From Pseudomonadota bacterium (GTDB lineage Bacteria; Pseudomonadota; Gammaproteobacteria; Methylococcales; Methylococcaceae), in contig JBFMDC010000026.1 in assembly GCA_040753975.1 (NCBI GenBank), positions 1 to 18,033 on the forward strand: a DNA stretch of 18,033 nucleotides. Reading direction: 5' to 3'. Below are positions 3,346 through 17,957 of the stretch, in pieces. The notes under the pieces are model-generated. The model ran no database searches, was not told where the DNA came from, and was given only the letters and a program-made list of their open reading frames with translations. Positions within the stretch are counted from its first letter, which is position 1, and each line of letters opens with the position of its first letter. The translations under genes were made by a program, and so were the position numbers.

Positions 3346-3381
3346 TAGAACCGTCTCTCCTGTCATACCTGATTTACTGAA

Positions 3382-3395: not shown

Positions 3396-3453
3396 CCCCA
3401 GCATATCAAAGTAATTTTGCGATGCTTGTACATGTTATCTCACTTTTTGACGC

Positions 3454-6400
3454 TCACTGAAAATCCCTGGACTTTACCACCAACCCGTCCAGCCATTTTC
3501 CGATATCTTCCAGCCGCCCGGCGACGAGGTGCAATACGCCCTCCTCCTGCTGCACGGTGCCGGATACCGCGAGGAGGTGGGCATACAGCAGCGCACGGCG
3601 TTGGGCCTGGGCGGTGGCGGGCCAGACGATGAGGTTGATCTGGCCGGTTTCGTCTTCGATCGTGACGAAGGTGGTACCGTTGGCGGTCATGGGGCGCTGC
3701 CGGCAGACCACGAGGCCGGCAACGCGGGCGATGGCGCCGTTCCTCACCTGCCACAAAGCTTCGGCGGTGCGGAAGCCGCGGCGGTCCAGCCGCTCCCGTA
3801 GGAGACTCAACGGATGGCGGCGCAGGCTGGCGCCGGCGGCTGCATAGTCGGCGATGACGTCCTCGGCTTCGCCCGGTTTCCTCAGCAGGGGCGCGGCTTC
3901 GGCGAATTGCGGTTCGGCATAGAGCGGGGTCGGCGCTTCCACGCCGGCGGCTTCCCAGAAGGCGCGATGGCGGTGGCCGCCGAGTCCGCGCAGTGCATCG
4001 GCGGCGGCCAGCGCTTCCAGCTCGCGGCGGTCGAGCCGGGCGCGGGTGGCTAAATCCTGGACGCTTTGGAACAGGCTCTGCCGGCGGGCTTCGCTCAGGC
4101 GTTGCGCCGCAGCGGACGAGAATCCGTTGACCAGGCGCAGACCCAGCCGAAGGGCCGGAACGGGCGAGTCACCCGGCTCCAGCGCACAATCCCAGTCGCT
4201 GTGGTTGACGTCGATCGGGCGCACTTCGACGCCGTGGCGGCGGGCGTCCTGGATGAGCTGGGAGGGGCCGTAGAAGCCCATGGGCTGGCTGTTGAGGAGA
4301 GCGCAGGCGAAGGCGGCGGGATGGTGGCACTTGAGCCAGGCCGAGACGTAGGCCAGGAGGGCGAAGCTGGCGGAATGCGATTCGGGGAAGCCGTATTCGC
4401 CGAAACCCTGGATCTGGCGGTAGATCTGGCGGGCGAAGCGCTCTTCGTAGCCGCGTTCGCGCATCCCGTCCATCAGCTTCTTCTCGAACGGCTCCAGCCC
4501 GCCTTTGCGGTGCCAGGCGGCCATGGCGCGGCGCAGTTGGTCGGCCTCGCCCGGCGTGAATCCGGCGGCGACCATGGCCAGTTGCATCACCTGCTCCTGA
4601 AAGATCGGCACGCCCAGCGTCCGCTTCAGCACCTTCTCCACATCGGGGCCGGGGTAGGACACCGGCTCCAGCCCGGCCCGCCGGGTAAGATAAGGATGCA
4701 CCATGTCGCCCTGGATCGGTCCGGGCCGGACGATGGCGATCTGGATCACCAGGTCGTAGTAGTTCTTGGGCCGCAGCCTCGGCAGCATGCTCATCTGCGC
4801 CCGCGATTCCACCTGGAACACGCCGATGCTGTCGGCCCGCTGCAGCATCTCGTACACCGCCGGGTCTTCCGGGGGGATGTCGGCCAGCGCGAACGGCCGG
4901 CCCAGCCCTTCGCCCACGTAGGCCAGCGCCTTGCGGATCGCGGTCAGCATGCCCAAAGACAGGACGTCGACCTTGAGCAGCCCCAGGGACTCCAGATCGT
5001 CCTTGTCCCACTGGATCACGGTGCGCTCGGGCATGGCGGCGTTTTCCACCGGCACCCAGTGCGACAGGTCCTCGGCAGCGATGACGAAGCCGCCCACGTG
5101 CTGGGACAGGTGGCGGGGAAAACCCACCAGCATCTGCACCAGGGCCAGCAGACGCCGCACCGCCGGGTTTTCGGACGCGAGGCCGGCTTCGGCCAGGCGC
5201 TCCGGCAATGTCTCCGCGACGCCGTGGCGGTCGAGCACCCGCGCCAGGGTGTCGATCCGCGACGGTGAAAAGCCCAGGGCGCGGGCGACGTCGCGCACCG
5301 CGCTCCTCACGCGGTAGGTGATGAGGCTGGCCGCCAGCGCCGCCCGGTGGCGGCCGTACTTGCGGTAGATGTACTGGATGACCTCCTCGCGCCGCTCATG
5401 CTCGAAATCCACGTCGATGTCGGGCGGCTCGTTGCGTTCCTTGGAGATGAAGCGCTCGAACAGCAGATCGAGCCGGGCCGGATCGACCTCGGTGATGCCG
5501 AGGCAATAGCACACCGCCGAATTGGCCGCCGATCCCCTGCCCTGGCACAGGATGCCACGGCTGCGGGCGAACTGGACCACATCATGCACGGTCAGGAAGA
5601 ACGGCTCGTAGGCCATGGCGCCGATCAGTTCCAGTTCGTGCCCGACCTGCCGCCGCACCTTGTCCGGCACGCCTTCCGGCCAGCGCTTGGCCATGCCTTG
5701 CCGGGTCAGCTCGCGCAGCCAATCGATGGCCGTGTAGCCGTCCGGCACCAGCTCGGCCGGGTATTCGTAGCGCAGTTCGTCCAGCGAAAACCGGCAGCGC
5801 TCGGCGATGCGCAGCGATTCTTCGAGGAGTGGCCGCGGATAAATCCGCGCCAGGGTCTCGACGGGACGCAGATGGCGCTCGCTGTTCGGAAACAGCGCGT
5901 AGCCGAGTTCCGCCAGCGGCTTGCCGAGGCGGATGGCGGTCAGGGTGTCCTGCAGCGGCTGGCGCTCGCGGGCGTGCATATGGACGTCGTTGCAGGCGAC
6001 CAGGGGGAGGCCCAGCCGATCGCCCAGCGCCTGTAGGGCGGCCAGGCGGCGGCCGTCCTCGCCGCCCAGGAACAGCTCGGCGCCGATCCAGCAGCGGGCC
6101 GGAAACAGCCGCGCCAGCCAGGCGCCGGTTTCGGCATCGGGCGCGTCTTCCGGCAGCCAGAGCGCGAGGCAATGGTCGAGCGCGTGGGTTTCGAGCTGAT
6201 GGCGGAGCAGCCGGTACCCGCCTTTCTCCGCCGCCCGCCGGCCCAGGGTGATGAAGGCCGCGAGCTGGCCGTAGCCGCGGCGGTCGGTCGCCAGCAGCAC
6301 CAGCTTGGGACCACCCTCCAGGCGGAATTCGCTGCCGATGATGAGCTTGAAGCCGAGTTGCTTGGCCTCGGCATGGGCGCGCACCGCGCCGGCCAGCGAG

Positions 6401-6522
6401 CATTCGTCGGTGAGCGCCAGGGCCGCGTAGCCCAACCGGGCGGCTTCGGCCACCAGCTCCTTGGGATGCGAGGCCCCGCGCAGGAAGCTGAAATTGCTCA
6501 GGGCATGCAGCTCGGCGAACAT
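3454..6522 (-). CDS. dnaE2: Error-prone DNA polymerase III alpha-subunit paralogue DnaE2 (ImuC), 1022 aa.
   Basis: It begins MFAELHALSNFSFLRGASHPKELV…LALTDECSLAGAV (PHP domain) and continues with pol III alpha motifs. The ORF-track ORF reaches 7122, but the conserved N-terminus starts at the ATG at 6522, 4 nt after the imuB stop. Confidence 0.9.
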   Translation of the reverse strand: MFAELHALSNFSFLRGASHPKELVAEAARLGYAALALTDECSLAGAVRAHAEAKQLGFKLIIGSEFRLEGGPKLVLLATDRRGYGQLAAFITLGRRAAEKGGYRLLRHQLETHALDHCLALWLPEDAPDAETGAWLARLFPARCWIGAELFLGGEDGRRLAALQALGDRLGLPLVACNDVHMHARERQPLQDTLTAIRLGKPLAELGYALFPNSERHLRPVETLARIYPRPLLEESLRIAERCRFSLDELRYEYPAELVPDGYTAIDWLRELTRQGMAKRWPEGVPDKVRRQVGHELELIGAMAYEPFFLTVHDVVQFARSRGILCQGRGSAANSAVCYCLGITEVDPARLDLLFERFISKERNEPPDIDVDFEHERREEVIQYIYRKYGRHRAALAASLITYRVRSAVRDVARALGFSPSRIDTLARVLDRHGVAETLPERLAEAGLASENPAVRRLLALVQMLVGFPRHLSQHVGGFVIAAEDLSHWVPVENAAMPERTVIQWDKDDLESLGLLKVDVLSLGMLTAIRKALAYVGEGLGRPFALADIPPEDPAVYEMLQRADSIGVFQVESRAQMSMLPRLRPKNYYDLVIQIAIVRPGPIQGDMVHPYLTRRAGLEPVSYPGPDVEKVLKRTLGVPIFQEQVMQLAMVAAGFTPGEADQLRRAMAAWHRKGGLEPFEKKLMDGMRERGYEERFARQIYRQIQGFGEYGFPESHSASFALLAYVSAWLKCHHPAAFACALLNSQPMGFYGPSQLIQDARRHGVEVRPIDVNHSDWDCALEPGDSPVPALRLGLRLVNGFSSAAAQRLSEARRQSLFQSVQDLATRARLDRRELEALAAADALRGLGGHRHRAFWEAAGVEAPTPLYAEPQFAEAAPLLRKPGEAEDVIADYAAAGASLRRHPLSLLRERLDRRGFRTAEALWQVRNGAIARVAGLVVCRQRPMTANGTTFVTIEDETGQINLIVWPATAQAQRRALLYAHLLAVSGTVQQEEGVLHLVAGRLEDIGKWLDGLVVKSRDFQ

Positions 6523-6526
6523 CGCT

Positions 6527-7999
6527 TCAGCCGAACAGGCCGTGCAAATGCCAGGGCCCCGCCGTCCCGGCGTCCCGGTAGATCCACAGCCGGGCCCCGG
6601 CGCCGTCGACCGCCACATGATAATCGCGCCGCACCGGCCCGCCGTCCCACCAGCCGGTTTCGATCCGCTCGCACTCGGGCAGGATGCGGATGTCCCGCTT
6701 GGATAAAAGCCGGGGCCGAGGCAGCAGCCACAGGGGCCGGGGCGACCGCGCCGCCGCGCCGCTGCGGGGTGCGTTGCCGGATGCCGCCCGCTCCGGCCGG
6801 TGATCGGCGCGGAGCACGGGCTGGCGCAAGGCCTGCGGTCCCAGCCGCGCCTGGAGGCGGTCGAGCAGTTCGTCCCAAGCCTCCCCGCTGGCCGCCTCGG
6901 GCGTGAACAGGTCCGCCATCGGCACGGCGAACGGCTGGAGGTCGGCGCTTCGCAGCAGCAAGCCCCGGACCGGGGCGGGCAGCGCCACCCGCTCCAGCCG
7001 CTGGCGCAGCAGGGCTGCGAATTGCCCGGCCTGCCGTCCTGCCCGGCGTGGCCTTGAGCAAACCCGCGTCGGCGCGGCGCGGGCATGCCGCAGTTCGAGC
7101 TCCAGCTCCGCGGCGACGGCATCGCGGCTCCGCAGGAAAGCCTCGAATTCCGCCAGCAAAACTTCGACCAGCGGGAAGACCTGGGTCAGGTCTTCGGTTT
7201 CCATCGCCAGTTCTCGCTCGGCGCGGAATCGGGGCGGGGCATGGAACTGCCGCAGCGGCTGGGGCCGGCTGCCCGCGGCCTCGTCCAGCCGCCGCAGCAG
7301 ATCGCGGCCATAGCGGCGCGCCAGACCGTCCCGCGGCATGCGCCAGAGATCGCGCAGCACCTGCAGTCCGGCACGGGCAAGACGGCCGGTGAGCTTATCG
7401 TCGATGCCCAGCGCGGCGACGGGCAGATCGCCCAGCGCGGAACGCAGCGCCTCAGCCTCGAGCACCGGCGCCGGGAACCCTGCCTGCGCCATCAGCCAGG
7501 CCGCCGCGGGCGTCGGCGCCAGACCGCATTGCACCGCGTGGCCGTCCGCCGCACGGCAGGCCGTTTCGGCCAGCGCCTCCGGCCCGCCGAACAGCCGCAG
7601 GCTGCCGCGTACCTCCAGTTGGAGGGTGGCCGGGAAGTCCAGGCTGATCCAAGGGGTGAAGCGCAGGCAGCGTTCCGCCAGCCGGGAAAGGGCCCGCCGC
7701 TCGGCCTCCGGGTCCCGGTTCACCGCCGTCAGCCCAGGACAGAGCGCCTGAGCTTCGGCCAAGGCCATGCCGGGGACGACACCCTGTGCTTCGGCTGCCG
7801 CCGAAGCACTGTGAACCAGGAGCCGGCCGCCACCGGCTTCGGTGACGGCGATCGGTTCGGACGCCGCGGCCCCTAAAGCCTCCAGCGCAAGCGCGGGGAA
7901 ATGCAGCGCCAGCCAGAGCGGCGCGGCCTCGGCCGGGGGGACCTCGCATGGCGGTTCCGCCGGGAGAGAAGGGGAATGGTAAGCGCGCGCGAGGGACAT
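6527..7999 (-). CDS. imuB: ImuB, a Y-family polymerase-like protein of the mutagenesis cassette, 490 aa.
   Basis: …LWLALHFPALALEALG… is the typical ImuB N-terminal motif. It sits between imuA and dnaE2. It has a Pro-rich leader of about 25 aa before the conserved start, with no alternative in-frame ATG. Confidence 0.85.
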   Translation of the reverse strand: MSLARAYHSPSLPAEPPCEVPPAEAAPLWLALHFPALALEALGAAASEPIAVTEAGGGRLLVHSASAAAEAQGVVPGMALAEAQALCPGLTAVNRDPEAERRALSRLAERCLRFTPWISLDFPATLQLEVRGSLRLFGGPEALAETACRAADGHAVQCGLAPTPAAAWLMAQAGFPAPVLEAEALRSALGDLPVAALGIDDKLTGRLARAGLQVLRDLWRMPRDGLARRYGRDLLRRLDEAAGSRPQPLRQFHAPPRFRAERELAMETEDLTQVFPLVEVLLAEFEAFLRSRDAVAAELELELRHARAAPTRVCSRPRRAGRQAGQFAALLRQRLERVALPAPVRGLLLRSADLQPFAVPMADLFTPEAASGEAWDELLDRLQARLGPQALRQPVLRADHRPERAASGNAPRSGAAARSPRPLWLLPRPRLLSKRDIRILPECERIETGWWDGGPVRRDYHVAVDGAGARLWIYRDAGTAGPWHLHGLFG

Positions 8000-8005
8000 G
8001 GCGCC

Positions 8006-8626
8006 CTACAGCACCAAGCGGACGCGCGCCCCGCCGAATCCGCCGCGGGCCTTGAGTATCCGCAGTTCCAGCCCGCCTTCGCAGACTCCGAGGCTCAGGC
8101 GCAACGCCGCCGTACCGCCGGCAGCACCGCCGGAGAACAGCATGCCGAGCGCGCCCCCTTCCCCCGCCGCCAGCTGCAGGCGGCGCCAGGCGGAGGGCGG
8201 CAGCGTCCGTGGCCAAGCCAGCACCAGGCCGGTCTCGGGATGGCGCAGCACCAGTTCCAGCGTCCAGCTCAAGTCCCGCTTGTGGTCCGCCACCGCCACC
8301 ACCAGCATCCGCCCGATCTCGACCCCGGCCTGGACCAGCGCCGGCGCGTAGGGCTCGAACGGCGGCGCGACCCACACCAGCCGGCGCCCATCCCCGGCGA
8401 TGCGCCGCATCAGCGGCAGTAGCAGCCGCAGTTCGCCGATGCCGTGGCTCGGCGCGACGATCTCGGTCAGGGCGCCCGCCGGCCAGCCGCCGCCCGGCAG
8501 CACCGCATCCAGCGCCGCATGGCCGCTGGGGACGACCGGCGCCCGCCAGGCTGCCGGCCGGCGCCCGCGCCAGACCCGGGGGTCGCGGTCCAGCAGCTCG
8601 GCCAGTGCCTCCACCTTCCCGGCCAT
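8006..8626 (-). CDS. imuA: ImuA (SulA/RecA-fold cell-division-inhibitor-like protein), 206 aa.
   Basis: The conserved start MAGKVEALAELLDRD…ALDAVLPGGGWPAGALTEI lies at position 106 of the longer ORF-track ORF (8006..8941). Its ATG overlaps the lexA stop by 1 nt (TGATG). Confidence 0.8.
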   Translation of the reverse strand: MAGKVEALAELLDRDPRVWRGRRPAAWRAPVVPSGHAALDAVLPGGGWPAGALTEIVAPSHGIGELRLLLPLMRRIAGDGRRLVWVAPPFEPYAPALVQAGVEIGRMLVVAVADHKRDLSWTLELVLRHPETGLVLAWPRTLPPSAWRRLQLAAGEGGALGMLFSGGAAGGTAALRLSLGVCEGGLELRILKARGGFGGARVRLVL

Positions 8627-9234
8627 CAGCCCACCCGGGTGCGGATCACGCCGACCACGATGCCTTCGATGCAAAGCGGCTGGCGTTCCAGATCGACGGC
8701 GATGACGGAAAACTCGGGATTGGCGGGCTCCAGATAGGCCACGGCACCCTCCAGCCGCAGGCGCTTCACGGTCACCTCGTCGTGGAGGCGCGCCACCACG
8801 ATCTGGCCGGAGCGGGCCTCCTGCGCCTGCTGCACCACCAGCAGATCGCCGTCGATGATGCCGGCGTCGCGCATGCTCATGCCCTGGACCCGCAGCAGAT
8901 AATCGCCCTTGTGCCCGAACAGCTCCGGCCCCAGCCGGCAATGGCGCTCGACCTGGGCCTCGGTCATCAGCGGCCGTCCCGCCGCGACCTTGCCGATCAG
9001 AGGGAGGTCCATGTCCTCGGCCTTGGCGAGCAGGCGGATGCCGCGCGAGGCGGAAGGGATCAGCTCGATCGCCCCCTTGCGCTCCAAAGCGCGCAACTGC
9101 TCCCGAACCCCATGAGGGGAGCTGACCCCGATGGCGCGGGCGATCTCGGCGATGGTGGGAGGAAAACCTTCGTCTTCCACGCTGCGGCGGATGCAGTCCA
9201 GGATTTCGCGTTGGCGGATGGTCAGGGGCTTCAT
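8626..9234 (-). CDS. lexA: LexA repressor, 202 aa from the second ATG. The first in-frame ATG is at 9243.
   Basis: The protein aligns end to end with E. coli LexA (MKPLTIRQREILD…; cleavage site VAAG; catalytic GMSMRDAGI Ser and VTVKRL Lys). Confidence 0.9.
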   Translation of the reverse strand: MKPLTIRQREILDCIRRSVEDEGFPPTIAEIARAIGVSSPHGVREQLRALERKGAIELIPSASRGIRLLAKAEDMDLPLIGKVAAGRPLMTEAQVERHCRLGPELFGHKGDYLLRVQGMSMRDAGIIDGDLLVVQQAQEARSGQIVVARLHDEVTVKRLRLEGAVAYLEPANPEFSVIAVDLERQPLCIEGIVVGVIRTRVG

Positions 9235-9248
9235 GCTCGGCATACGAA

Positions 9249-9268
9249 TACTGTTTTTATGAACAGTA
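9249..9268. promoter_or_regulatory. LexA (SOS) box TACTGTTTTTATGAACAGTA.
   Basis: A perfect CTGT-N8-ACAG motif lies inside a longer palindrome (cgaatactg…cagtattcg), 6 nt upstream of the first lexA ATG. It overlaps the -10 of the promoter below. Confidence 0.9.
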
Positions 9269-9292
9269 TTCGATCAGCCCCCACCCCGTCAA
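9263..9292 (-). promoter_or_regulatory. Sigma70-type promoter of the lexA-imuA-imuB-dnaE2 operon: TTGACG-18-TACTGT on the minus strand.
   Basis: Read directly from the sequence: -35 cgtcaa at 9287-9292 and -10 acagta at 9263-9268 on the plus strand. The LexA box overlaps the -10. Confidence 0.6.
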
Positions 9293-9383
9293 CCGCCCGG
9301 CGGTCCGCCAATAGACCAGATGTTCACGCGGAACAGATCGGTCAATGAGAGTTGCTGCTTCCAACAACGGCAAGCCGAGCAGC

Positions 9384-9412
9384 TTGACGCCGTTCCTTAT
9401 TGATATGATAAT
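9384..9412 (+). promoter_or_regulatory. Sigma70-type promoter TTGACG-17-GATAAT facing the YceI-like gene. A partial Fur-box-like AT tract (GATATGATAATGAGAAACATT) overlaps the -10.
   Basis: The hexamers and spacing were read directly. The Fur-box resemblance is only partial: GATAAT repeats in an AT-rich tract. Confidence 0.5.
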
Positions 9413-9457
9413 GAGAAACATTCGCATTAAATGCCACCCATCCGCTTGGAGGTCTCC

Positions 9458-9529
9458 ATGATTCGCGTTGCATCTTCCGCTATCGCCCGTCCTTACCGCG
9501 ACCACCCGGTACAAAAGCAGGGGTCGTAG
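9458..9529 (+). CDS. Possible 23-aa leader or small ORF (MIRVASSAIARPYRDHPVQKQGS) between the promoter and the YceI-like gene.
   Basis: GGAGG lies 5 nt upstream of the ATG. An in-frame ATG at 9431 would extend it to 32 aa. There is no homology support. Confidence 0.2.
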   Translation: MIRVASSAIARPYRDHPVQKQGS

Positions 9530-9590
9530 CGATCTCGTCGGCCGAACGTCACGAATATATAGTCCCAACACCACCTTATGAGGTGACAAA

Positions 9591-10217
9591 ATGATCGGAA
9601 ATCGACTCTTTTCGAAGCTCGTCCTCGGCGCCTTCGTATTGGCCGCGGCAAGTCCAAGCCAGGCCGAGTGCCGCTATAAGCCGAACAAAGAGGGGTTCGG
9701 CTTCAGCTTCACCGCCTATGCCGCCCCGAACAAGACCTACGTGATCAAAGACAATCGTTTCAAGAAATTCACCCTGGCCTCGCCGTCCGGGATGCTGCAG
9801 GACGCCAGCATCGAGATCGACGCGACTTCTCTGGACACCGGTCATGACCTCAACAATGGCAAAGGAGGCGAGTGGCCGGCAGCAATCATTCCCGTCCGCG
9901 ACAGCAATGTGGTCAACCACTTCTTCAAGAAGTTCGACAACAATCCTGGCGTGGTCTCGGCCAAAGTCGCCGGCATCACCAAAGACGGCATCGATTTGGC
10001 GGTGACCATGAACGGCGTCACCAAAACCGTGCCCATGAAATCCGCGGTGAAGGACGGCGTCCTATCGGCTACCGGCACGTTGAACGTGCTGGATTTCGGG
10101 ACCGGTAAAGCGTTTGACGCCTTCCGCCAGGTTTGCGAGATGGCCTTCCATCAGGGCAAGACCTGGAGCGATATCGAGTTTGAGTTCCATGTGCCGGTGG
10201 AAGGGAGCTGCAGCTAG
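9591..10217 (+). CDS. YceI-like periplasmic (polyisoprenoid-binding-type) protein with a signal peptide, 208 aa.
   Basis: The N-terminal signal is …LAAASPSQA. Blocks resembling E. coli YceI are present (IEIDATSLDTG, RDSNVVNHFF, GVTKTVPMK, LNVLDFG). SD gaggtga sits 5 nt upstream of the ATG. Confidence 0.65.
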   Translation: MIGNRLFSKLVLGAFVLAAASPSQAECRYKPNKEGFGFSFTAYAAPNKTYVIKDNRFKKFTLASPSGMLQDASIEIDATSLDTGHDLNNGKGGEWPAAIIPVRDSNVVNHFFKKFDNNPGVVSAKVAGITKDGIDLAVTMNGVTKTVPMKSAVKDGVLSATGTLNVLDFGTGKAFDAFRQVCEMAFHQGKTWSDIEFEFHVPVEGSCS

Positions 10218-10298
10218 GGTAGGATGCCTTTACTCAAGGGGGCGGGGTTTGCGGAGTGGCCATCAACCAGCGGTGAGGTGAACGTGACGGCGGAGCAC

Positions 10299-11103
10299 AT
10301 GGCCTGGCACTGGAGCGGGAAGGAGGTGCGTATTGGCGTCGATCGCCTCGGTGCGGGACCGACTGTGCTGCTGTTGCCCGCGATGAGCTCCATCTCCAGC
10401 CGGGGCGAGATGCGCCCCTTACAGGAGCGACTGGCGGCGGACTTCTCTACCGTCGCCGTCGATTGGCCTGGCTTTGGCGATGAATCGCGGCCGTAGCGGC
10501 CGGACACGCGGCCGGGTACCTGCTCCGGGCTGCCGCAGATACGCCGGGATCGGCCGGCCAATTGTGCCTGATCGCCCCGACCTGGCGCGGCCCTCTGCCG
10601 ACCCTGCTCGGCGGCCGCCGCTGGCTCGGACGTTGGCTCGTCCGGGCAGGCGATCTGCCGCTGTTCGGCCAATTCCTGTACCGGCTCAACGTCAACCGGC
10701 CCATGGTGCGCCTGATGGCGCGCGGCCATGTCTACGCCGAGCGCGGGACTGGCTGGCCGGCGAGCGGCTGCGCCAGAAGCTCGCAGTCATCGCCGCCCCC
10801 GGCGCACCGCACGCCTCGCTGCGTTTCGTCGCTGGCCTGCTGGACCCGATGCCGGACCGCGCCGCGTTCATCGAAAATGCAACGCGTGTCCGCGATCCTG
10901 TCCTAGTGGTCTACGGCGCGGCGACTCCGCACAAATCCAAGGCGGAAATGCAAGCATTGACGGCAGTTCCGCACGTCCGTTGCGTCGAGCTGCCCAAGGG
11001 CAAGCTCGCTATTTACGAGGAGTTTCCGGACACGGTGGCAGAGACGGTGAAGTCGTTTCTGCGTGGCGGCGGCCTACGCTTGGAGTCCGCGGAAAAACCC
11101 TAG
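10299..11103 (+). pseudogene. Alpha/beta-fold hydrolase gene split across three reading frames, with an Ala at the nucleophile position (GHAAG). It is probably decayed.
   Basis: The N-terminal part is in the frame of the 10224 ORF (…LLLPAMSS…VAVDWPGFGDESRP*). The middle part is in frame 2 (AVAAGHAAGYLL…LIAPTWRGPLP…). The C-terminal part is in frame 1 (…DPVLVVYGAATPHK…AIYEEFPDTVAETVKSFLRG). The frame switches are near 10484-10496 and near 10745. Confidence 0.5.
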
Positions 11104-11149
11104 CGGACGGTCGCGGGTGGAAGTGGAGCAGGGGCGGGAGCGGCCGGAT

Positions 11150-11875
11150 CGTCGGGGTCTCTCAAGAAACACGCCGGGCCGCCCCAAGTGTTTCTTGCCC
11201 ATTGATGGGTCAAAAACGGAGCGCAGCGGGTTTTTGGGGGTGGGCTAACTCATTGAGGTAAGCCCCCGGCTTTGGCGGGGGACTCACCGGGGTTTGACCT
11301 GTACGGCGGTCGTTGTGAACCTGAAATCTCGACCAAGAGATGGAGGTTCACGATGAAAGAGTACCAGAGTCTTTCCCCCACCAGATGGGGTTGTAAGTAT
11401 CACGTAGTGTTTATCCCGAAGCGGCGGAAGAAACAGATTTTTGGAGCGGTCAAGCGGCATCTTGGAGAGATATTTCATGAACTTGCCGGGCACAAAGAGT
11501 CGAAAATCGTGGCGGGCCACTTGATGGGGGATCACGTACACATGTGCATCAGCATACCGCCGAAGTGCGCGGTTTCGAGCGTGGTGGGCTAGATCAAGGG
11601 CAAGAGCGCGATCCAAATCGCCCGGCAATTTGGTGGTCGGCGGAGGAATTTCACCGGGGAGAATTTTTGGGCCAGGGGCTACTTCGTTTCCACGGTGGGC
11701 TTGGATGAGGCCATGGTTCGGGCATATATCCGCCGACAGGAACAGGAGGATGAGCGCCACGATCAGATGAAGCTTGGCCTGTAGGTGACCGCCTTGGGCG
11801 GCTCATGATTTTACGGCGCCTTTGAGGCGCTCACCCAATAAGCCCCCGGCTTTGCCGGGGGTGATTTAACTATTC
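11150..11875 (+). mobile_element. IS200/IS605-family insertion sequence, about 0.7 kb. Its boundaries are approximate.
   Basis: An HUH/Y1 tnpA is flanked by near-identical subterminal hairpins: gcccccggctttggcggggg at 11262-11281 and gcccccggctttgccggggg at 11842-11861. An additional left-end palindrome caagaaacac…gtgtttcttg lies at 11163-11197, as in IS200. There are no terminal inverted repeats, as expected for this family. Confidence 0.7.
11353..11784 (+). pseudogene. tnpA: IS200-type transposase TnpA interrupted by an in-frame TAG at 11590-11592. The stop falls between the HUH motif and the catalytic Tyr.
   Basis: MKEYQSLSPTRWGCKYHVVFIPKRRK…GDHVHMCISIPPKCAVSSVVG-TAG-IKGKSAIQIARQFGG…ENFWARGYFVSTVG…RAYIRRQ is read in a single frame. 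GGAGG lies 6 nt upstream of the ATG. The TAG sits where IS200 TnpA has a conserved Tyr (GYLKGKS). Confidence 0.75.
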
Positions 11876-12352
11876 GTTCCGCCCTTTTGTCCTCAAACTT
11901 CCCAGCGTCAGACGCAACACCGGACCCATCGGGCCTTGCCCCACCGAAGGTGCGGGTAAAGGTGCCTCCTCCTCTCGCCCCAAGGCCAGCATTTCCTTGT
12001 GTTCTTCCAGCAAGTGATGCAACAGCTTTAACGACAAAGAAGGCGGTAAAGCACCTCCGATGACGTCGATGAGGAATTGGCTGTGATCGCGCACCACCAC
12101 GTATTCTCTCGGCCAGGGCGCCGGGTAGTCCGCCAAGAGATCATTCATTTTCTCGATGTTGCCCCGTTCTTCTTCGGCGATATGGCCGAAGAGCCGCTGT
12201 TTGACCTCGGGGGAAATCGCCGTATCCCCCAGCAGTTCCAAGAGCATTTCAATATGTTCCCGAACGTTGTGGGCGATGCGGGACGCCTGCCCTCGAAGGG
12301 CCTCATCGTTCATCGCCTGTATCAGGCCTCCTTGCGGCAGCTTTGCGGTCAT
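11870..12352 (-). CDS. Encapsulin cargo protein. It is a putative hemerythrin-like (HHE, HxxxE x2) or diiron ferritin-like protein with a C-terminal family-1 targeting peptide. It is about 160 aa.
   Basis: The C-terminus …GPVLRLTLGSLRTKGRNE matches the family-1 targeting-peptide pattern (LxxGSLxx). HxxxE motifs are present (GHIAEEE, HHLLEEH). The ATG at 12352 overlaps the encapsulin stop (ATGA). Alternative starts are at 12373 and 12313. Confidence 0.6.
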   Translation of the reverse strand: MTAKLPQGGLIQAMNDEALRGQASRIAHNVREHIEMLLELLGDTAISPEVKQRLFGHIAEEERGNIEKMNDLLADYPAPWPREYVVVRDHSQFLIDVIGGALPPSLSLKLLHHLLEEHKEMLALGREEEAPLPAPSVGQGPMGPVLRLTLGSLRTKGRNE

Positions 12353-13197
12353 GGCCCGGTTTCCAAGGTACAAATGGCAGTGGGGCGCTTGATCCGGAGC
12401 ACGATGCTTTCATAGATCCTGAAGCCATAATTCATATTTCTTGGCCCCAGATAGGCGATACTGACATCCTCTGCGATCGCCAGATCGAAATTCTCAGGAC
12501 CACAGGAAACCACCACGGCCTGCTCGGGCTTCAGCACCGGCGACTGATAAACCCCATCCTCGCAGAGCTTGGTGATGGAATCGATCTCGATCACCGGCAT
12601 ATCCTTCTCGGTCTTCAGGAGTGCGGCGTAGAGTTGAGGCGAGAGCACCGCGGCGTAAGGCCGATGGTGATGGGCATCGAGCAGGGCCAAGGTGGCTTCG
12701 CGGATATTCACGTAGGCTTTGCCGAACTGATTCCAATCGAGCATTGGGGTCGTCAGCCTTTTTTCGGCATTCAAGAGGCCTTCCATGCCCAATTCCCTGT
12801 GGCCATGGTAGATCAGATCCTCTTCGCGATGGGCCAGGAAATGCGCCGCCCGCACGGCCCGGCTCACATCCAGGGGAGCGTCCAGGGCGCGGCTCAATTC
12901 CACGTCCCGCCAATGAAAGATGAAGTCCTTGTAGATCAACGGGATCCTTTTATAGACCTCGGATTCGGCCTGTATGACCCGGGCGTCCCGTCCGCCTTCC
13001 AGATCGACCTCCGCCAGAGCATCCACCCCGTAGGTCTCGTACGAGACCGTTTCCAAGCCCGCACCCAGCGGCCCGTATACGTCAATGAACCGCCTCGCCG
13101 TCAGCGTCCGCTGCATTTCTTTCAGGATTTCGGATTCCAGGCGCTGGCGTTGTGACTCGCTGAGTGGATACTCGACATTGCGTTGATAGCTTCGCAT
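12349..13197 (-). CDS. Family-1 encapsulin shell protein (HK97 fold; the family historically labelled linocin-M18 bacteriocin), 282 aa.
   Basis: It aligns along its length with T. maritima encapsulin: FIDVYGPLG~FVDVEGPYG, IPLIYKDFIFHWRDVELS~LPLIELRATFTLDLWEL, and C-terminal LRIKRPTAICTLE. GC is lower than in the flanking core genes. Confidence 0.85.
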   Translation of the reverse strand: MRSYQRNVEYPLSESQRQRLESEILKEMQRTLTARRFIDVYGPLGAGLETVSYETYGVDALAEVDLEGGRDARVIQAESEVYKRIPLIYKDFIFHWRDVELSRALDAPLDVSRAVRAAHFLAHREEDLIYHGHRELGMEGLLNAEKRLTTPMLDWNQFGKAYVNIREATLALLDAHHHRPYAAVLSPQLYAALLKTEKDMPVIEIDSITKLCEDGVYQSPVLKPEQAVVVSCGPENFDLAIAEDVSIAYLGPRNMNYGFRIYESIVLRIKRPTAICTLETGP

Positions 13198-13317
13198 GAC
13201 ACACCTTTATTCGGGGTGAACCTAAGGAGCGAGGAGCCGGGTTTCAATGGCCTGGCCGGCCATTCGTTGCAAAGGTTGCGCCCGGACCGATGGGCTGTCA
13301 ATCGTGGATGGCATCCG

Positions 13318-13352
13318 CTGTTAGCAGCAGGCTGTTAACAGGCTGTTAACAG
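13318..13352. promoter_or_regulatory. Candidate operator made of three 10-bp palindromes: CTGTTAGCAG and then two perfect CTGTTAACAG copies. It lies immediately upstream of, and abuts, the -35 of the promoter below.
   Basis: Copies are at 13318-13327, 13332-13341 and 13343-13352. They sit in the divergent region between the encapsulin gene (minus strand) and the ABC remnant (plus strand). Confidence 0.5.
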
Positions 13353-13356
13353 CAGG

Positions 13357-13385
13357 TTGACGGCATATCGAACGCGCCATATCAT
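13357..13385 (+). promoter_or_regulatory. Sigma70-type promoter TTGACG-17-TATCAT.
   Basis: Read directly: -35 at 13357-13362 and -10 at 13380-13385. Confidence 0.5.
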
Positions 13386-13462
13386 CGTTGACGCGGATGC
13401 AAAGCGTTCGCATTTGCGAAATACCCCCCTGCTTCATCGTCGATTCATCCCGCTTCCACGCC

Positions 13463-14308
13463 ATGGCTTTGATTCGCATGATTCCGGCGCGCTCCTGGCG
13501 CACGCTGCTGCTGAGCGGTGTCAGCGCGACGGTTGGCGTGCGGGTCATGGCTTTCGTCAATGAGCGCATGATCCAGGGGCCGGACATCGACCGGGCCTCG
13601 CTGATGGAGTTCGCCGTTCTTCTGGTCGCGATGTTCGCGGTCGCTTCCGCCGCGCAAATGATGATGACCCGCTTGGGTCATCGGCTGGTCTACGAGCTCC
13701 GCCGCTCGCTCGTGAAGCGCATACTCGACACCGACTGCGAGCGGCTCGAACACGTGGGCCCGGCGCGTATCCTCGCCAGCCTCAGCAGCGATACCGGCCA
13801 CATCACCTCCGCCTTCATCAGCCTGCCGAACGCGGTGTATGGAACCGTGTTGACCTCGGGCGCGCTCGGCTACCTCGCCTGGCTTTCGCTGCCGCTGTTC
13901 TGGGCGATCGCCGGATGGCTGAGCCTGGCGGTCCTGATCGGCTGGCTGTTGCTGGTCCGCAAGGCGAAAATGGAACAGGGGAAGTTGCTGGATCTTAAGC
14001 TCTCCCAGGGACAACGGAAGCGACTGGCCTTGCTGCTCGCCGCGCTCGAGGAACGGCCGATTCTGATTCTGGACGAATGGGCGGCGGACCAGGACCCGTC
14101 CTTCCGCGAAACTTTCTACTTCGAACTGCTGCCGAAGCTTAAGGCTACCGGAACGACGATCTTCGCGATCACGCATGATGATCGGTACTTCCACCTGGCT
14201 GACCGGCAGTTGAAGATGGACGGCGGACACCTCACGGAAATGGCGATCCCGCAGGCGATGACCGCCGCGGGGGTGCGGAGCGGTGCAGCTTCGGTGGCTT
14301 CCAGGTGA
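13463..14308 (+). pseudogene. YojI-like ABC exporter (cyclic-peptide/microcin exporter family) carrying an in-frame internal deletion. The N-terminal transmembrane part is joined directly to the ABC signature, Walker B and H-loop. The Walker A and Q-loop region (about 260 aa) is missing.
   Basis: …TRLGHRLVYELRRSLVKRILDTDCERLEH… parallels the YojI N-terminus. The sequence jumps from …LLLVRKAKMEQGKLLDLK straight to LSQGQRKRLALLLAALEERPILILDEWAADQDP…TIFAITHDDRYFHLADR. No GxxGxGKS/T motif occurs anywhere. Total length is 281 aa; full-length family members are about 550 aa. Confidence 0.6.
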
Positions 14309-14412
14309 GCGACCGGGTCGTCGCTGATGGGCTGGTCACGCTCTAACCGGGGCCCGGCCCATCGCTGGATACCCGCTTCCCGAGCGCGGTCTACGCCGCG
14401 GAGATATTGACC

Positions 14413-16308
14413 ATGCCGCTACTGCCCACTTTCCTCCTCGCGCTGGCACTCGTCGCTCCCGCTACCGCCCAGGAGACCCAAACGCTCCTGCACCTGCTCG
14501 ATTACATCGGCGTGGACTACCCCGAGGCGATCGCGGACGGGAAGGTGAAGAACGAAGACGAATACCGGGAGATGCTCGAGTTCACCCAGCAGGTCAACGA
14601 GCGCCTCCAGGGGCTGCCCGAGCATCCCGACAAGGCGGCGCTCCTCGCCGACGCGCAGGGGCTCGCACGCCTGGTTAAGGACAAGGCCGACCCATCGGCC
14701 ATCGCCGAAGGCGCGGGGAAGCTGCGCTGGGCCATCGTCTCCGCCTACCGGCTCAGGCTCGCGCCACGCGCACCGCCCGACCTCACGCGCGGCAAGGCGC
14801 TCTACGCACAGCATTGCGCCGCCTGCCATGGCGCCGAAGGCCAAGGCGATGGGCCGGCCGCCAAGGGACTCGACCCCGCGCCGTCCAACTTCCACGACCT
14901 GGAGCGCATGGCGCAGCGCAGCGCCTATGGCCTGTACAACACGATCACGCTCGGCGTCGATGGCACTTCGATGGCATCGTTCAGGCAGCTTTCGGAAGAT
15001 GACCGCTGGGCGCTCGCGTTCTTCGTCTCGGTGATGGGCGTTCTCGGAGAGCGCGTCAGCGAGGGCGAGCGACTGTGGAAGTCGGGCGAGGCGGTGGCTG
15101 CATTCCCCGATCTCGGCAACGTCGCGATGCTTTCGACGAGCGAAGTTGTCGCGCGCTACGGCGATAAGGCCGCCCGGGTGCAGGACTACCTGCGGGCGCA
15201 TCCCGAAGTCATCCAGCCCTCTCCGATCGAATTGGCACGGCGCAAGCTGGCCGAGGCGCGTGAGGCGTACGCGCGCGGCGAGCGATTGGCTGCGCACGAC
15301 GCCGCCATCGAAGGCTATCTGGAGGGCTTCGAACTGGCCGAGACCAGCCTCGCCAACATCGACCCGACCCTGATGCGCGAGACCGAGCGCGAGATGTTCG
15401 ATCTGCGCGCCGCGATCGAGCGCGGCGAGCCCGCCGTGGCCTTCGCCGAGCGCGTCGAGCGCGTCGACGCGCTGCTCGCCGCCGCTCAAGAGAAGCTCCG
15501 CGCGGGCGGTCTTTCGGCGGCGACCGCGTTTACTACCTCGCTGATCATTCTGCTCCGCGAAGGGCTGGAAGCGATCCTCGTGCTCGCCGCCGTCATCGCC
15601 TTCGTCGCCAAGACCGGCCGCCGCGACGCCCTGCCGTGGGTGCATGCGGGCTGGATCGCGGCGCTGCTCTGCGGCATTCTCACCTGGGCGCTCGCCAGCT
15701 TCGTCGTCGAAATCTCCGGCGCCAACCGCGAGCTGACCGAAGGCGTCACGGCGCTCCTTGCCGCCGCCATGCTGCTTTACGTCGGCTACTGGCTGCATGG
15801 CAAGGCCTATGCCGCAGCCTGGACCCGCTTCATCCGGGAACAGGTGGGTCAGGCGCTGGCCAGGCGCACGCTATGGGCGATGGCGGCGGTATCCTTCCTC
15901 GCCGTGTACCGCGAGATGTTCGAGATCGTGCTCTTTTACCAGGCGCTGTGGGTCCAGGTGGGCGAGACGGGCCGCGCGCCGGTGCTCGGCGGCGCGGCGG
16001 CGGCTGCGGTCGCGCTGGGGGCCATCGGTTTCGCGCTCTTCAGGTACAGCGTGCGCCTGCCGCTCGGACCGTTCTTCGGCGCCACTTCGGCCCTGCTCGC
16101 TCTCCTCGCGGTCGTCTTCACCGGCCACGGCATCGCGGCGCTGCAGGAGGCCGGCGTGTTCCGGGCATCGAGGCTCGACTTCGAGCCGATGCCGCTGCTC
16201 GGTCTGTATCCGAGCGTCGAAGCGCTGCTTGCCCAACTTTTCGCGCTCGCGCTGGTCGGCCTCGGATTCTGGACTGCCCGGCGCAACGCCATGGTGCCCG
16301 CGACATGA
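14413..16308 (+). CDS. Fusion protein: an N-terminal periplasmic cytochrome c domain joined to an FTR1-family iron permease.
   Basis: A signal peptide is followed by the heme motif CAACH. The C-terminal half is polytopic and carries both RExxE motifs (LREGLEAIL, YREMFEIVL). GGAG lies 9 nt upstream of the ATG at 14413. The ORF track starts at TTG 14407. Confidence 0.8.
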   Translation: MPLLPTFLLALALVAPATAQETQTLLHLLDYIGVDYPEAIADGKVKNEDEYREMLEFTQQVNERLQGLPEHPDKAALLADAQGLARLVKDKADPSAIAEGAGKLRWAIVSAYRLRLAPRAPPDLTRGKALYAQHCAACHGAEGQGDGPAAKGLDPAPSNFHDLERMAQRSAYGLYNTITLGVDGTSMASFRQLSEDDRWALAFFVSVMGVLGERVSEGERLWKSGEAVAAFPDLGNVAMLSTSEVVARYGDKAARVQDYLRAHPEVIQPSPIELARRKLAEAREAYARGERLAAHDAAIEGYLEGFELAETSLANIDPTLMRETEREMFDLRAAIERGEPAVAFAERVERVDALLAAAQEKLRAGGLSAATAFTTSLIILLREGLEAILVLAAVIAFVAKTGRRDALPWVHAGWIAALLCGILTWALASFVVEISGANRELTEGVTALLAAAMLLYVGYWLHGKAYAAAWTRFIREQVGQALARRTLWAMAAVSFLAVYREMFEIVLFYQALWVQVGETGRAPVLGGAAAAAVALGAIGFALFRYSVRLPLGPFFGATSALLALLAVVFTGHGIAALQEAGVFRASRLDFEPMPLLGLYPSVEALLAQLFALALVGLGFWTARRNAMVPAT

Positions 16309-16373
16309 AATCCAGGCGATCCGCCCTAACCGTTTCCGTGTCACACGCACGTCTCTTCCTACCCAGGAATCTG

Positions 16374-16397
16374 CGGTCGGAGACCGCCTCCTTTTTC
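16374..16397 (+). terminator. Candidate intrinsic terminator after the cytochrome c-FTR1 gene: GCGGTC-gga-GACCGC followed by CTCCTTTTT.
   Basis: A 6-bp GC-rich stem with a 3-nt loop is followed by a T5 run, 66 nt after the stop codon. Confidence 0.4.
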
Positions 16398-16411
16398 CTT
16401 CTCCCGCTGGG

Positions 16412-16439
16412 ACAAAACCGCCGGGAGCGGTTTTGGTCG
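16412..16439 (+). repeat. Hairpin GACAAAACCGC-CGGGA-GCGGTTTTGGTC, a member of the CGGGA-loop hairpin family.
   Basis: It has the same architecture as the hairpin at 2583-2610: same loop and same GAC…GGTC flanks, with compensatory stem changes. It is close to the reverse complement of the tandem-repeat hairpin (ccaatccgc-cggga-gcggattgg), again with compensatory differences. Confidence 0.5.
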
Positions 16440-16505
16440 AGTGGAGCTCGCCCGAAGGGTTCCGGGCTGGACGGCCCGGAAACAAAAGGTGGCCCGGAGG
16501 GCCGG

Positions 16506-17723
16506 ATGAGGGATAGAGACCGCACGGTTCCGGGGCACAATTCGAGGGCCGCGGGACCGTGCGGTCTCTCCCTGTTCGCCATGGTGCTGCTCCTTGCCGG
16601 CTGCCAGCACGCGACGGCGCCCGGGCCGGCTACCCCGGCGCGCGCCCCAAGCGACGCCTCGGCGCCGCCGCCCGCGACGGGCGACACCCGCTACGTTTTC
16701 GGGTGGGGCGAGCTGCCCGCGATCCTCGCCCAGCCGCGCGGTGGCAGCACGCGCGGGGCTCCGGTCACACTCGCACCGGGCCGGGCGCTACCGTTGCCGG
16801 AGATCGCCGCCGCGTCCGACGAATTCATCCAGGACCGGGCCGCGATCTTGGCGCTCGCCGGCGATTACAAGGTGAGTTTCCACTTCATGGAGTCGCTCGG
16901 GCTTGCACCCGACTACCAACCCACCAGGCCTTACCACTCGTGGGCCACTGAGCGCGTCGATGTGCTGGAAGACCGGGGGCGCTTCATCAGCCTTCAGCAC
17001 ACGCTCTTGATGTTTTTCAAAAACGCCGATGGCACGGTATCCGGGCCGGAGGTCGCGAAGCACTGGCGACAGGACTGGACCTACGAGGATACCGACCTCT
17101 ACACCTTCCGCGGCGCTTCCACCTGGTCGCGGCGCCGCGTCCCGGCCGCCGAAGCGGCCGGGCGCTGGTCGCTGGCCGTGTTTCAGGTCGACGATTCACC
17201 GCGCTACGAAGCACTCGGCCGCTGGGAGCACCGCGGCAACATTTCCGCCTGGACCAGCGAACGCGCCTGGCGTCCGCTCCCGCGTCGCGAACACACCGTG
17301 CGCCAGGACTACGACGTCATGGAGGGCATTCACCGCATCCTCCTCACCCCCACCGGCTGGCTCCATGAGCAGAACAACTTAAAACGCGTCGCGGGCGAAA
17401 CCGGCGAAGCGGCGCGCTTCGTCGGGGCGGAAATTGGCCTGGACCGCTACGAACGCATTACCGCGCCTAGTCTCGTTGCCGCGGACGAATATTGGAAGAA
17501 AACCGCCCGCTATTGGGCGGTGGTCCGCCGCGCCTGGGCCGAAGTGCTGGCGCGCCATGAGCGTTTCACGCTACGCACGGAAGTGGGCGGCAAAAAGCTT
17601 TTCGAGGAGCACCTGGCCTACGCCGAGAAGCTCGCGTCCGGCACGCCGTTCGACGCCGCTGACGCGGAAGGCCAGGCGCGAGCGACCCTCCGGAAATTCG
17701 TCACGACCAAGAAGCCCCCCTGA
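16506..17723 (+). CDS. Putative lipoprotein of unknown function (405 aa), probably co-transcribed with or functionally linked to the cytochrome c-FTR1 gene.
   Basis: GGAGG lies 5 nt upstream of the ATG. The signal region ends in the lipobox LLLAGC. The long ORF-track ORF (15636..17723) extends upstream through the FTR1 gene in another frame and is not credible. I recognise no characterised family confidently. Confidence 0.6.
   Translation: MRDRDRTVPGHNSRAAGPCGLSLFAMVLLLAGCQHATAPGPATPARAPSDASAPPPATGDTRYVFGWGELPAILAQPRGGSTRGAPVTLAPGRALPLPEIAAASDEFIQDRAAILALAGDYKVSFHFMESLGLAPDYQPTRPYHSWATERVDVLEDRGRFISLQHTLLMFFKNADGTVSGPEVAKHWRQDWTYEDTDLYTFRGASTWSRRRVPAAEAAGRWSLAVFQVDDSPRYEALGRWEHRGNISAWTSERAWRPLPRREHTVRQDYDVMEGIHRILLTPTGWLHEQNNLKRVAGETGEAARFVGAEIGLDRYERITAPSLVAADEYWKKTARYWAVVRRAWAEVLARHERFTLRTEVGGKKLFEEHLAYAEKLASGTPFDAADAEGQARATLRKFVTTKKPP
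16515..16569. other. 14-bp perfect inverted repeat AGAGACCGCACGGT…ACCGTGCGGTCTCT with a 27-nt spacer. It spans codons 4-21 of the lipoprotein gene.
   Basis: Read directly. The GCGGTC/GACCGC motif also forms the small hairpin at 16374-16388. Confidence 0.6.
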
Positions 17724-17806
17724 CGCTTCGACAATCCGCTGTGGCTCGTTCTCATCGAGCCGGCGGCGATGACCTTGACATCGATGAGCAGGGGCGAAGT
17801 AACGAT

Positions 17807-17854
17807 CCACCGGCAAAGCCGGTGGCTTTCGACGGCTGGCCCCTCCAAGGGGCC
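17807..17854 (+). terminator. Two back-to-back GC-rich hairpins downstream of the lipoprotein gene: ccaccggc-aaa-gccggtgg, then ggcccct-cca-aggggcc. They may be a terminator or REP-like.
   Basis: Perfect 8-bp and 7-bp stems. The first is followed by CTTTC, a weak U-tract. Confidence 0.35.
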
Positions 17855-17887
17855 TGACCGCCGTCGGGCAAAAGCCAAGTCGTCGCC

Positions 17888-17904
17888 CCGGCAGGGATTG
17901 CCGG
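17888..17904. repeat. Hairpin ccggca-gggat-tgccgg, the reverse complement of 248-264. It lies 54 nt upstream of the right-end tandem repeat.
   Basis: Exact reverse-complement match to 248-264. Confidence 0.6.
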
Positions 17905-17957
17905 GATCCAGTGGCCACGGATGGCTGCGACCTCACACCTCCCTGTGAGCTGGATTC

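Follow-up and report, generated by a model that had tools for sequence, protein, structure and literature searches.

The published catalogue of cargo proteins for family-1 encapsulins is short and comprises DyP, Flp/EncFtn, IMEF, hemerythrin, Bfr-like proteins and few others. IMEF is an iron-mineralising cargo, EncFtn generally occurs with T=1 shells (T, triangulation number), and hemerythrin-like domains have an H-HxxxE-H-HxxxE arrangement of ligands. Here we analyse a two-gene operon in 18,033 nucleotides (nt) of DNA from a Pseudomonadota bacterium of the Methylococcaceae (contig JBFMDC010000026.1, positions 1 to 18,033; this whole stretch is called the window), in which an encapsulin shell gene is followed by the gene of a putative cargo protein of 160 amino acids (aa). 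On this evidence, the shell type and the packaging principle are known, and what is new is a four-helix cargo family with a two-helix sister family, which appear to be a variant of the ferritin-like encapsulin cargos. Cargo types define what encapsulin compartments do, and the catalogue gains these two families. We consider it roughly 60% probable that the operon is a mobile two-gene family-1 module whose duplicated, EncFtn-type cargo serves iron oxidation and storage.

The targeting peptides (TPs) published for related cargos read RLTVGS(N)L(M) in EncC, PLTV(I)GS(T)L in EncB and …TVGSLI in IMEF (PMC11202242). The bacterial EncFtn signature consists of Glu32 and H57xxxE61-E62-x-E64-H65 (PMC11202242). 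Genes for family-1 cargos generally lie directly upstream of the shell (PMC8346489; 10.1101/085266); exceptions to this order include the ferredoxins associated with IMEF and, in Sporichthya, a second hemerythrin encoded downstream of the shell (10.1101/085266).

Shell gene and an unnamed cargo family

The preliminary description of this DNA had called the shell gene a family-1 encapsulin. Indeed, its 282-aa product matches Pfam Linocin_M18 (PF04454; E 1e-55, 189 bits, cut-off 24.3) and NCBIfam encap_f1 (NF041155; E 3.6e-68, 229.8 bits against a cut-off of 100, covering residues 10-278) above the curated cut-offs, and by sequence it is a family-1 (classical) encapsulin. The solved shells nearest to it in phmmer searches are M. 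xanthus EncA (4pt2/7s20; 2e-75, full length) and the Q. thermotolerans shell (6nj8; 2e-73). Two remoter shell entries of the PDB, 2e0z and 9ry4, reached only ~1e-12. EncA-type shells of Myxococcaceae are 42-47% identical to the window shell. No phage morphogenesis genes (terminase, portal, protease) were found among the larger open reading frames (ORFs) in a Pfam scan of the 18-kb window.

The product of the second gene is 100% identical to a protein from a metagenome-assembled genome (MAG) at NCBI (P0001, 'Pseudomonadota bacterium'), where it is labelled hypothetical. It has no Pfam, NCBIfam or PDB sequence match; the best NCBIfam model, EncB_fam, reached 9.9 bits, its cut-off being 90. In a word-indexed comparison with 5.8 billion proteins, only the cargo itself and two relatives (76% and 57% identity) were returned, and the genes of both relatives directly follow a Linocin_M18 shell gene. 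When 1.84 billion representatives were searched exhaustively with a profile, 41 proteins were found at E<=1e-3, nearly all of which end in (W/L)TVG(S/P)(L/M), preceded by a linker that varies in length and composition. The resulting four-helix cargo family numbers 64 or more non-redundant members, every one of them from a metagenome bin, and wherever the contig was long enough, its gene adjoins a related family-1 shell in every locus tested. Since the pair of shell and cargo genes was found again in dozens of independent loci, its occurrence in the window is not due to chance.

GTDB genomes were scanned with a shell alignment, and the ORFs of the 80 loci obtained were searched for the cargo family by hmmsearch. 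The family is present in every one of these loci whose shell is >=47% identical to that of the window, with the sole exception of the orphan L017. It was detected in none of the remoter Myxococcaceae EncA, Bacillaceae IMEF and Sericytochromatia loci, which carry EncB, IMEF and EncFtn-like cargos in its place. In a neighbour-joining tree of 83 shells, the clades track the cargo type (two-helix family, four-helix family, IMEF, EncB/EncFtn), and the four-helix family co-diversifies with one shell clade. The orphan shell (L017, 2908-3849) belongs to Armatimonadetes and is the next-closest to the window shell (58% identity); no ORF with a TP flanks it on either side, and its cargo must be encoded elsewhere.

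Neither the four-helix family nor its two-helix sister is represented in Pfam (2025), NCBIfam (2026) or the PDB (2026), and the literature that we searched contains no description of either family. No Melainabacteria or Obscuribacter occur among the entries listed in the supplement of PMC8346489, an absence that is not proof. All members of the two families that we found come from uncultured Melainabacteria, Planctomycetota, Myxococcota, Acidobacteriota and Pseudomonadota, and all are labelled 'hypothetical'.

The cargo ends in …PVLRLTLGSLRTKGRNE, and the tag LRLTLGSLR lies within this tail. PVLRLTLGSLR is invariant in the close clade. The consensus of the tag in the whole family is [WL]T[VL]G[SP][LM], and it is kept in about 60 of the 64 members despite their variable linkers. 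Between the core of the window tag, RLTLGSL, and the tag determined experimentally for M. xanthus EncC, RLTVGSL, there is a single conservative substitution. A tail resembling a targeting peptide had been pointed out before, and this proposal is borne out by the family-wide tag and its match to the TPs of EncC, EncB and IMEF. The downstream protein is therefore supported as a candidate TP-bearing encapsulin cargo.

Internal duplication, the two-helix sister family and the predicted metal site

AlphaFold2 (AF2), supplied with a 43-sequence alignment, predicted four helices (residues 8-41, 48-75, 82-98 and 104-127; pLDDT, the predicted local confidence, 88; pTM, its global counterpart, 0.72), separated by loops of 5-6 residues and followed by a tail of low confidence. 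With three close homologues alone, the model was unusable (pLDDT 53). Fold searches with the AF2 model returned only generic helical bundles. We compared profiles with hhalign and ran each comparison with reversed-column and shuffled-column controls. The N-terminal half of the cargo (helices 1-2) aligned with the C-terminal half (helices 3-4) at a probability of 94% (E 9e-8, score 35.1), while the reversed control scored 11.6 and the best shuffle 12.2. The two halves are thus homologous, and the cargo is an internal tandem duplication.

Each half is also homologous to the two-helix family (probability 95-96%, E ~1e-8, score 39-43; controls at most 13.8), the N-half reaching a probability of 96% and a score of 42-43 against a shuffle maximum of 13.8. 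This family comprises at least 47 clusters (proteins P0048-P0094; loci L018, L021-L025, L028, L030 and L032) from Planctomycetota and Polyangiales/Myxococcota MAGs, all 'hypothetical' and none with a Pfam domain. It shares with the window cargo the type of TP and a place beside a shell of the sister clade, since its shells form a clade sister to that of the four-helix family. In contrast to the window cargo, its members have a single repeat, often carry two TPs and are always encoded upstream of the shell. They also retain a complete HxxxEExEH: the consensus K.EHR.IL..IA.DPGM.PETR..LI.HLY.EEDEHLAEI holds Glu(-30) together with this motif, which is the full bacterial EncFtn signature. Against a profile of EncB, EncC and Pfu EncFtn, the two-helix family scored 30-31 (probability 80-82%, E 1e-5; shuffle maximum 14.8); this profile itself retrieves the Rru, Hoch and Pfu EncFtn structures. 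The two-helix profile retrieved 47 further members from a large database, but no EncFtn annotated by Pfam.

Tandem TPs are common among the two-helix proteins (L018:2558-2938, L021:2627-2941, L024:916-1236, L028:2450-2917 and L030:2598-2960), as in the tail …LTVGSLRADPEPIQPNADSNLSVGSLRH. One such cargo could bind two shell protomers.

Given the homology of both its halves to a two-helix family with the full EncFtn signature, the window cargo is, judged from its sequence, most likely a derived ferritin-like protein of the EncFtn type by descent. One proposal holds that the four-helix proteins of the ferritin superfamily arose by duplication (He et al. 2016, PMC5012862). Since unfused and tandem-fused forms occupy sister shell clades here, the long-held idea that a doubled EncFtn-like hairpin gave rise to four-helix di-iron proteins becomes directly testable.

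Conservation was counted across 64 non-redundant members. H33, H57, E61, H113, E116 and E117 occur in 63/63 aligned sequences and H90 in 64/64; D/E32 is found in 63, E62 in 61, H28 in 60, H118 in 58 and N65 in 56 of the 64 members. The paired HxxxE motifs that had been noticed earlier in the body of the protein (H57xxxE61 and H113xxxE117) are therefore real and, as these counts show, invariant in the aligned members; H28xxxE32 and H112xxxE116 are further instances. Around the first of them the window cargo reads E32 … H57-I-A-E-E61-E62-R-G-N65, the agreement of its numbering with that of EncFtn being a coincidence. The N-half keeps all residues of the EncFtn signature, including the 30-residue Glu-to-Glu spacing, except that His65 is replaced by Asn. 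The equivalents in the C-half are D89 … H113-x-x-E116-E117-H118-x-E120; here HxxxE (H113, E117) is retained, His118 takes the position of the bridging Glu (Glu62), and W/L/M stands at that of His65. Fusion has visibly freed the metal site from symmetry, with H65 changed to N in one half and E62 to H in the other. In addition, an invariant His (H33, H90) directly follows the Glu32 equivalent in both halves. The EncFtn ferroxidase signature Glu32…HxxxE-E62-x-E-H65 is incomplete in both halves.

Among 43 members, no match above cut-off was obtained with the EncFtn/Flp profiles (PF22277, TIGR04535 and NF058679 EncB_fam). Hidden Markov models (HMMs) of the four-helix and the two-helix family gave no significant match in the PDB; EncC (E 0.42) and EncB (E 0.75) were among the weak ones. 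The weak database matches of family members include EncC 7s8t, bacterioferritin, EncB_fam, IMEF and DUF892 amid unrelated weak ones. As sequence searches found no annotated EncFtn, the link to EncFtn rests on the profile-profile scores, the motif and its spacing.

Among the known systems closest to the operon are EncA, EncB and EncC of M. xanthus (4pt2, 7s20, 7s5c, 7s8t). The resemblance covers the full-length shell match, the EncC-like TP, the H-x-x-x-E-E-x-E of cargo helix 2, and the general character of the cargos, which are small, acidic and helical and have a long flexible linker. However, EncB and EncC are two-helix protomers that form decamers, whereas the window cargo is a single four-helix chain of two diverged repeats. 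It also has Asn at the His65 equivalent, additional invariant or near-invariant His residues (33, 90, 113 and 118) and a gene downstream of the shell, and the EncB_fam model failed on it. With EncFtn of R. rubrum (Rru_A0973, 5da5, PF22277) it shares the residues and spacing of Glu32 … H57xxxE61-E62 and a C-terminal TP, but differs in N65 for H65, in being a fused duplicate with short loops and in lacking a PF22277 match. Whereas EncFtn-type cargos are two-helix protomers whose metal site forms at the interface of a dimer within a decameric ring, the AF2 model of the window cargo has all four helices in one chain. The T=4 encapsulin of Quasibacillus thermotolerans (6nj8; IMEF, PF24309) has a related shell, a four-helix cargo and a TVGSL-type TP; the window cargo gave no IMEF profile match, and the ferroxidase centre of IMEF lies at a dimer interface.

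An identity with IMEF was rejected, as there was no PF24309 match and the hhalign comparison was at control level (probability below 1%, E 0.44, score 10.7). The TIGR04536 (IMEF) model hit one of the 43 members at E 0.027, while a true IMEF (L072) scores 1.6e-23. EncD was likewise rejected, since none of the 43 members matched the NCBIfam EncD model.

Probable function of the cargo and competing explanations

In the reading that we prefer, that of an iron-storing module with a duplicated EncFtn-type cargo, the shell would assemble into an icosahedral compartment. This would probably be of the large T=3/T=4 iron-storage type, because the nearest solved shells are EncA and Q. thermotolerans 6nj8 (T numbers in PMC11202242, PMC12746231). 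The downstream cargo, co-transcribed with the shell, would be packaged via its C-terminal RLTLGSLR on a flexible linker and docked to the lumen. Its family would have arisen by tandem duplication of a two-helix EncFtn/EncB-like unit. After the fusion the halves would have diverged, the N-half acquiring Asn for His65 and the C-half His118 for the bridging Glu, with His33 and His90 as new residues. For the core, a di-metal site is predicted that is asymmetric and rich in His and Glu; its two ions would most likely be iron, Fe(II) would be oxidised there, and the mineral would be stored in the shell. Iron oxidation and storage are the most likely function; the altered His-rich site leaves the chemistry less certain, and since the canonical ferroxidase triad lacks members, we give the oxidation step about an even chance.

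Several observations speak against this reading. When the four-helix family was compared with EncFtn directly, the probability was 20-40% (E ~1e-3, score ~23, controls 14-19). This direct link is weak, and the connection passes through the two-helix family, whose own alignment with EncFtn spans 26-27 columns, mainly of helix 2. HMM-versus-sequence searches connected neither family significantly to EncFtn. Loops of 5-6 residues imply an up-down-up-down bundle, unlike the EncFtn ferroxidase dimer or ferritin. Ferritin's long crossover is needed to mimic that dimer (PMC5012862), and in the AF2 model the short loops would exclude such a crossover in the window cargo. Ferroxidase activity is not assured because the ligands are incomplete (H65 to N in the N-half; E62 to H and H65 to W/L/M in the C-half). 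Lastly, no conserved iron-related neighbours accompany the module in the loci compared.

A second reading is possible but rather unlikely in our judgement. The cargo would again be a fusion of an EncFtn-like unit, yet folded as an up-down-up-down bundle in which an asymmetric, His-rich and hemerythrin-like di-metal site carries out chemistry other than classical ferroxidation (for example with O2, NO or peroxide) inside a shell of the T=3/T=4 type. The ligand inventory, with six conserved His, five to six carboxylates, the pattern H…HxxxE…H…HxxxE and short loops, does appear nearer to hemerythrin than to ferritin. If this reading were true, the family would be a present-day instance of the proposed duplication route and a case of convergence between ferritin-like and hemerythrin-like site designs.

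The preliminary description had gone further and taken the cargo for hemerythrin/HHE-like rather than Flp. A hemerythrin-like (HHE-type) di-iron cargo, by homology or convergence, would bind O2, NO or peroxide against oxidative or nitrosative stress, a role described for the hemerythrin encapsulin of Streptomyces sp. AA4. The hemerythrin-type pattern H … HxxxE … H … HxxxE/D is present, one set per predicted helix (H33; H57xxxE61; H90; H113xxxE117), and these residues as well as H28 and H118 are invariant or nearly so. The short loops would allow only an up-down-up-down bundle, which is the topology of hemerythrin and not of ferritin, and the canonical His65 and one bridging Glu of the ferroxidase centre are lost. 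However, Pfam Hemerythrin (PF01814) did not match the window cargo at E<=1, nor any of the 43 members at E<=0.1. The HMMER/Pfam check that had been proposed for the 160-aa protein thus returned no hemerythrin family and no Pfam match of any kind. Nor was a hemerythrin found among the four PDB profile matches at E<=10 or among the weak database matches. The hhalign comparison with hemerythrins, whose profile consisted of three animal sequences only, was at control level (probability below 1%, E 0.17, score 12.3 against a shuffle maximum of 16.3). Hemerythrin cargo encapsulins (Streptomyces sp. AA4; Giessen & Silver) do resemble the window operon in the four helices, the H…HxxxE…H…HxxxE pattern and the C-terminal TP, but share no sequence or profile similarity with its cargo. 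Moreover, their shells fall into the T=1 cluster (10.1101/085266), whereas the window shell is EncA-like and groups with the T=3/T=4 iron-storage shells. The motif is accounted for by EncFtn ancestry: because HxxxE is part of the EncFtn signature, its pairing is an EncFtn trait and no evidence against Flp. The likeness to hemerythrin remains what is probably a functional analogy, not membership, and we regard a hemerythrin-type cargo as unlikely.

Still less probable, though conceivable, is a cargo with another metal (Mn, Co, Zn or Cu) or cofactor, acting as an EncD-like ferric reductase or in electron transfer, or a non-catalytic sequestering or scaffold protein. A degenerate ferroxidase triad would fit such a role, no second TP-bearing cargo lies beside the window shell, and EncD, a four-helix cargo without a ferroxidase centre, binds flavin mononucleotide (PMC12746231). 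On the other hand, the EncD model failed as described above, and as the only TP-bearing gene of the module in every locus, this protein should be the primary cargo. The invariant His/Glu pattern would also suit a metal site better than a flavin site. That the likeness of the tail is fortuitous and the downstream ORF no encapsulin cargo is highly improbable, given the tag's conservation across variable linkers, its near-identity to the EncC tag and the adjacent shell in every sufficiently long locus.

Gene order, mobility and surroundings of the operon

The coordinates of the operon and its parts are given in Table 1. The overlap of the two genes in ATGA fashion, which had been described before, is present if ATG 12352 is the start, with the cargo ATG (12352-12350) lying across the shell TGA (12351-12349) in the context GGGCC-ATG-A. 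However, the true start, and with it the overlap, is uncertain because the alternative ATG at 12313 has a perfect AAGGAGG upstream. A scan for consensus terminators found nothing relevant.

Table 1. Features of the encapsulin operon and the adjoining insertion sequence (positions in the window).
Feature	Position	Strand	Basis or remarks
Family-1 encapsulin shell gene, 282 aa	12349-13197	-	Pfam Linocin_M18, NCBIfam encap_f1
Cargo gene, 160 aa from ATG 12352	11870-12352	-	ORF; alternative ATG 12313 gives 147 aa
Shine-Dalgarno AAGGAGG, 13 nt upstream of alternative ATG 12313	12327-12333	-	Read from sequence
N-terminal repeat of cargo core, residues 15-76, helices 1-2	12125-12310	-	H28, E32, H33, H57-IAE-E61-E62-RG-N65
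C-terminal repeat of cargo core, residues 78-127, helices 3-4	11972-12121	-	D89, H90, H113-LL-E116-E117-H118-K-E120
Pro/Gly/Ala-rich flexible linker, residues 128-145	11918-11971	-	pLDDT falls to 66-72; length and sequence vary across the family
C-terminal targeting peptide LRLTLGSLR, residues 146-154	11891-11917	-	Close-clade invariance and family consensus
IS200-family element remnant, 9 nt after cargo stop	~11259-11861	+	Pfam Y1_Tnp 1.7e-19

The order of the genes had been called unusual for a family-1 system, and rightly so, since cargos are usually encoded upstream and the order found here is real and specific to a clade. Most loci of the cargo family have the cargo gene first (L005, L008-L011, L019-L020, L026-L027, L029, L031 and L033-L043). 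The shell gene comes first in the window and in six other loci, with spacers of -4 to +23 nt: L001 (= L014, Deltaproteobacteria), L002 (JGI metagenome), L012 (Solibacteraceae), L013 (Pseudomonadota), and L015 and L016 (Melainabacteria). In the tree of 83 shells, these shell-first loci fall into a single clade whose sister comprises the cargo-first loci of the four-helix family, and the reversal is therefore a single event inherited by a clade. As this clade spans at least four phyla at 78-93% shell identity, horizontal transfer is implied.

A blastn comparison of the window with its nearest relative, L002, gave 85.5% nucleotide identity from 13198 to 11883 and none in the flanks. It is the gene pair, then, that moves as a unit. 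The GC content of the two-gene operon is 57.5%, compared with 65.3% in the rest of the window and 67-75% in dnaE2/imuB, and a remnant of an IS200-family insertion sequence (IS) begins 9 nt past the cargo stop. The lower GC content, the flanking IS and the horizontal acquisition put forward in the preliminary description are all upheld by these data together with the confinement of the L002 homology to the two genes. Around the seven shell-first and several cargo-first loci, no accessory genes are conserved, and the flanking genes differ in every locus. Within this mobile two-gene cassette, the swapped order is a minor rearrangement confined to one clade.

In Sericytochromatia, a bona fide EncFtn-like cargo lies directly downstream of the shell (L053:3847-4272, L055:3847-4152 and L067:3847-4218; PF22277 2.2e-09, EncB_fam 1e-21). 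This is a second, independent shell-first case, and the order is thus not without precedent. About 1 kb from the Solibacteraceae shell-first operon, a three-domain multicopper oxidase is encoded (L012:5284-6720, minus strand); no neighbour is conserved across loci.

The IS200 remnant ends in 23-nt hairpin repeats at 11259-11281 and 11839-11861, which are direct repeats, and its Y1 transposase gene tnpA contains an in-frame TAG at 11590-11592. Past the cargo stop, one of these IS200 end hairpins resembles a terminator, but it is not demonstrably that of the operon. On the other side of the operon, three tandem units of ~11 nt lie at 13331-13364, ~135-170 nt upstream of the shell start and between the shell and a divergent ATP-binding cassette (ABC) fragment. 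They read CTGTTAACAGC twice and then CTGCTAACAGC, each with the palindrome TGTTAACA. Judged from their sequence, which is not Fur-box-like, the units may be an operator for some regulator. The fragment itself (13388-14308, plus strand) is a 306-aa ORF in which the N-terminal part of ABC_membrane (profile positions 43-163) runs straight into the final 30 positions of ABC_tran; an ABC exporter seems to have suffered an internal deletion here, leaving a pseudogene beside the inserted operon.

Further along the plus strand, a cytochrome c domain and an FTR1-family iron permease are fused (14407-16308), and a DUF6607 protein follows (15636-17723). This is a setting of iron uptake, 1.2 kb away from the encapsulin module and on the opposite strand; as the module is mobile, the adjacency may be accidental. 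On the minus strand, 3454-8941 holds dnaE2 (PHP, DNA_pol3_alpha, finger, HHH_6 and OB domains) with an imuB-like gene of the IMS family (6527-7999) before it, and a 311-aa ORF without a Pfam match (8006-8941) that is possibly imuA; the cassette is one of SOS mutagenesis. A low-GC island at 2751-3500 (42-44% compared with 56-70% around it) contains a DUF4160 (3073-3366) and DUF2442 (2840-3076) pair on the minus strand and is probably another acquired small module. The Pfam scan of the larger ORFs in the window further found YceI, and a 429-aa ORF at 540-1829 (plus strand) combines a BrkB/YihY membrane domain (residues 38-285) with a C-terminal Rrf2-type iron-dependent regulator domain (residues 306-425).

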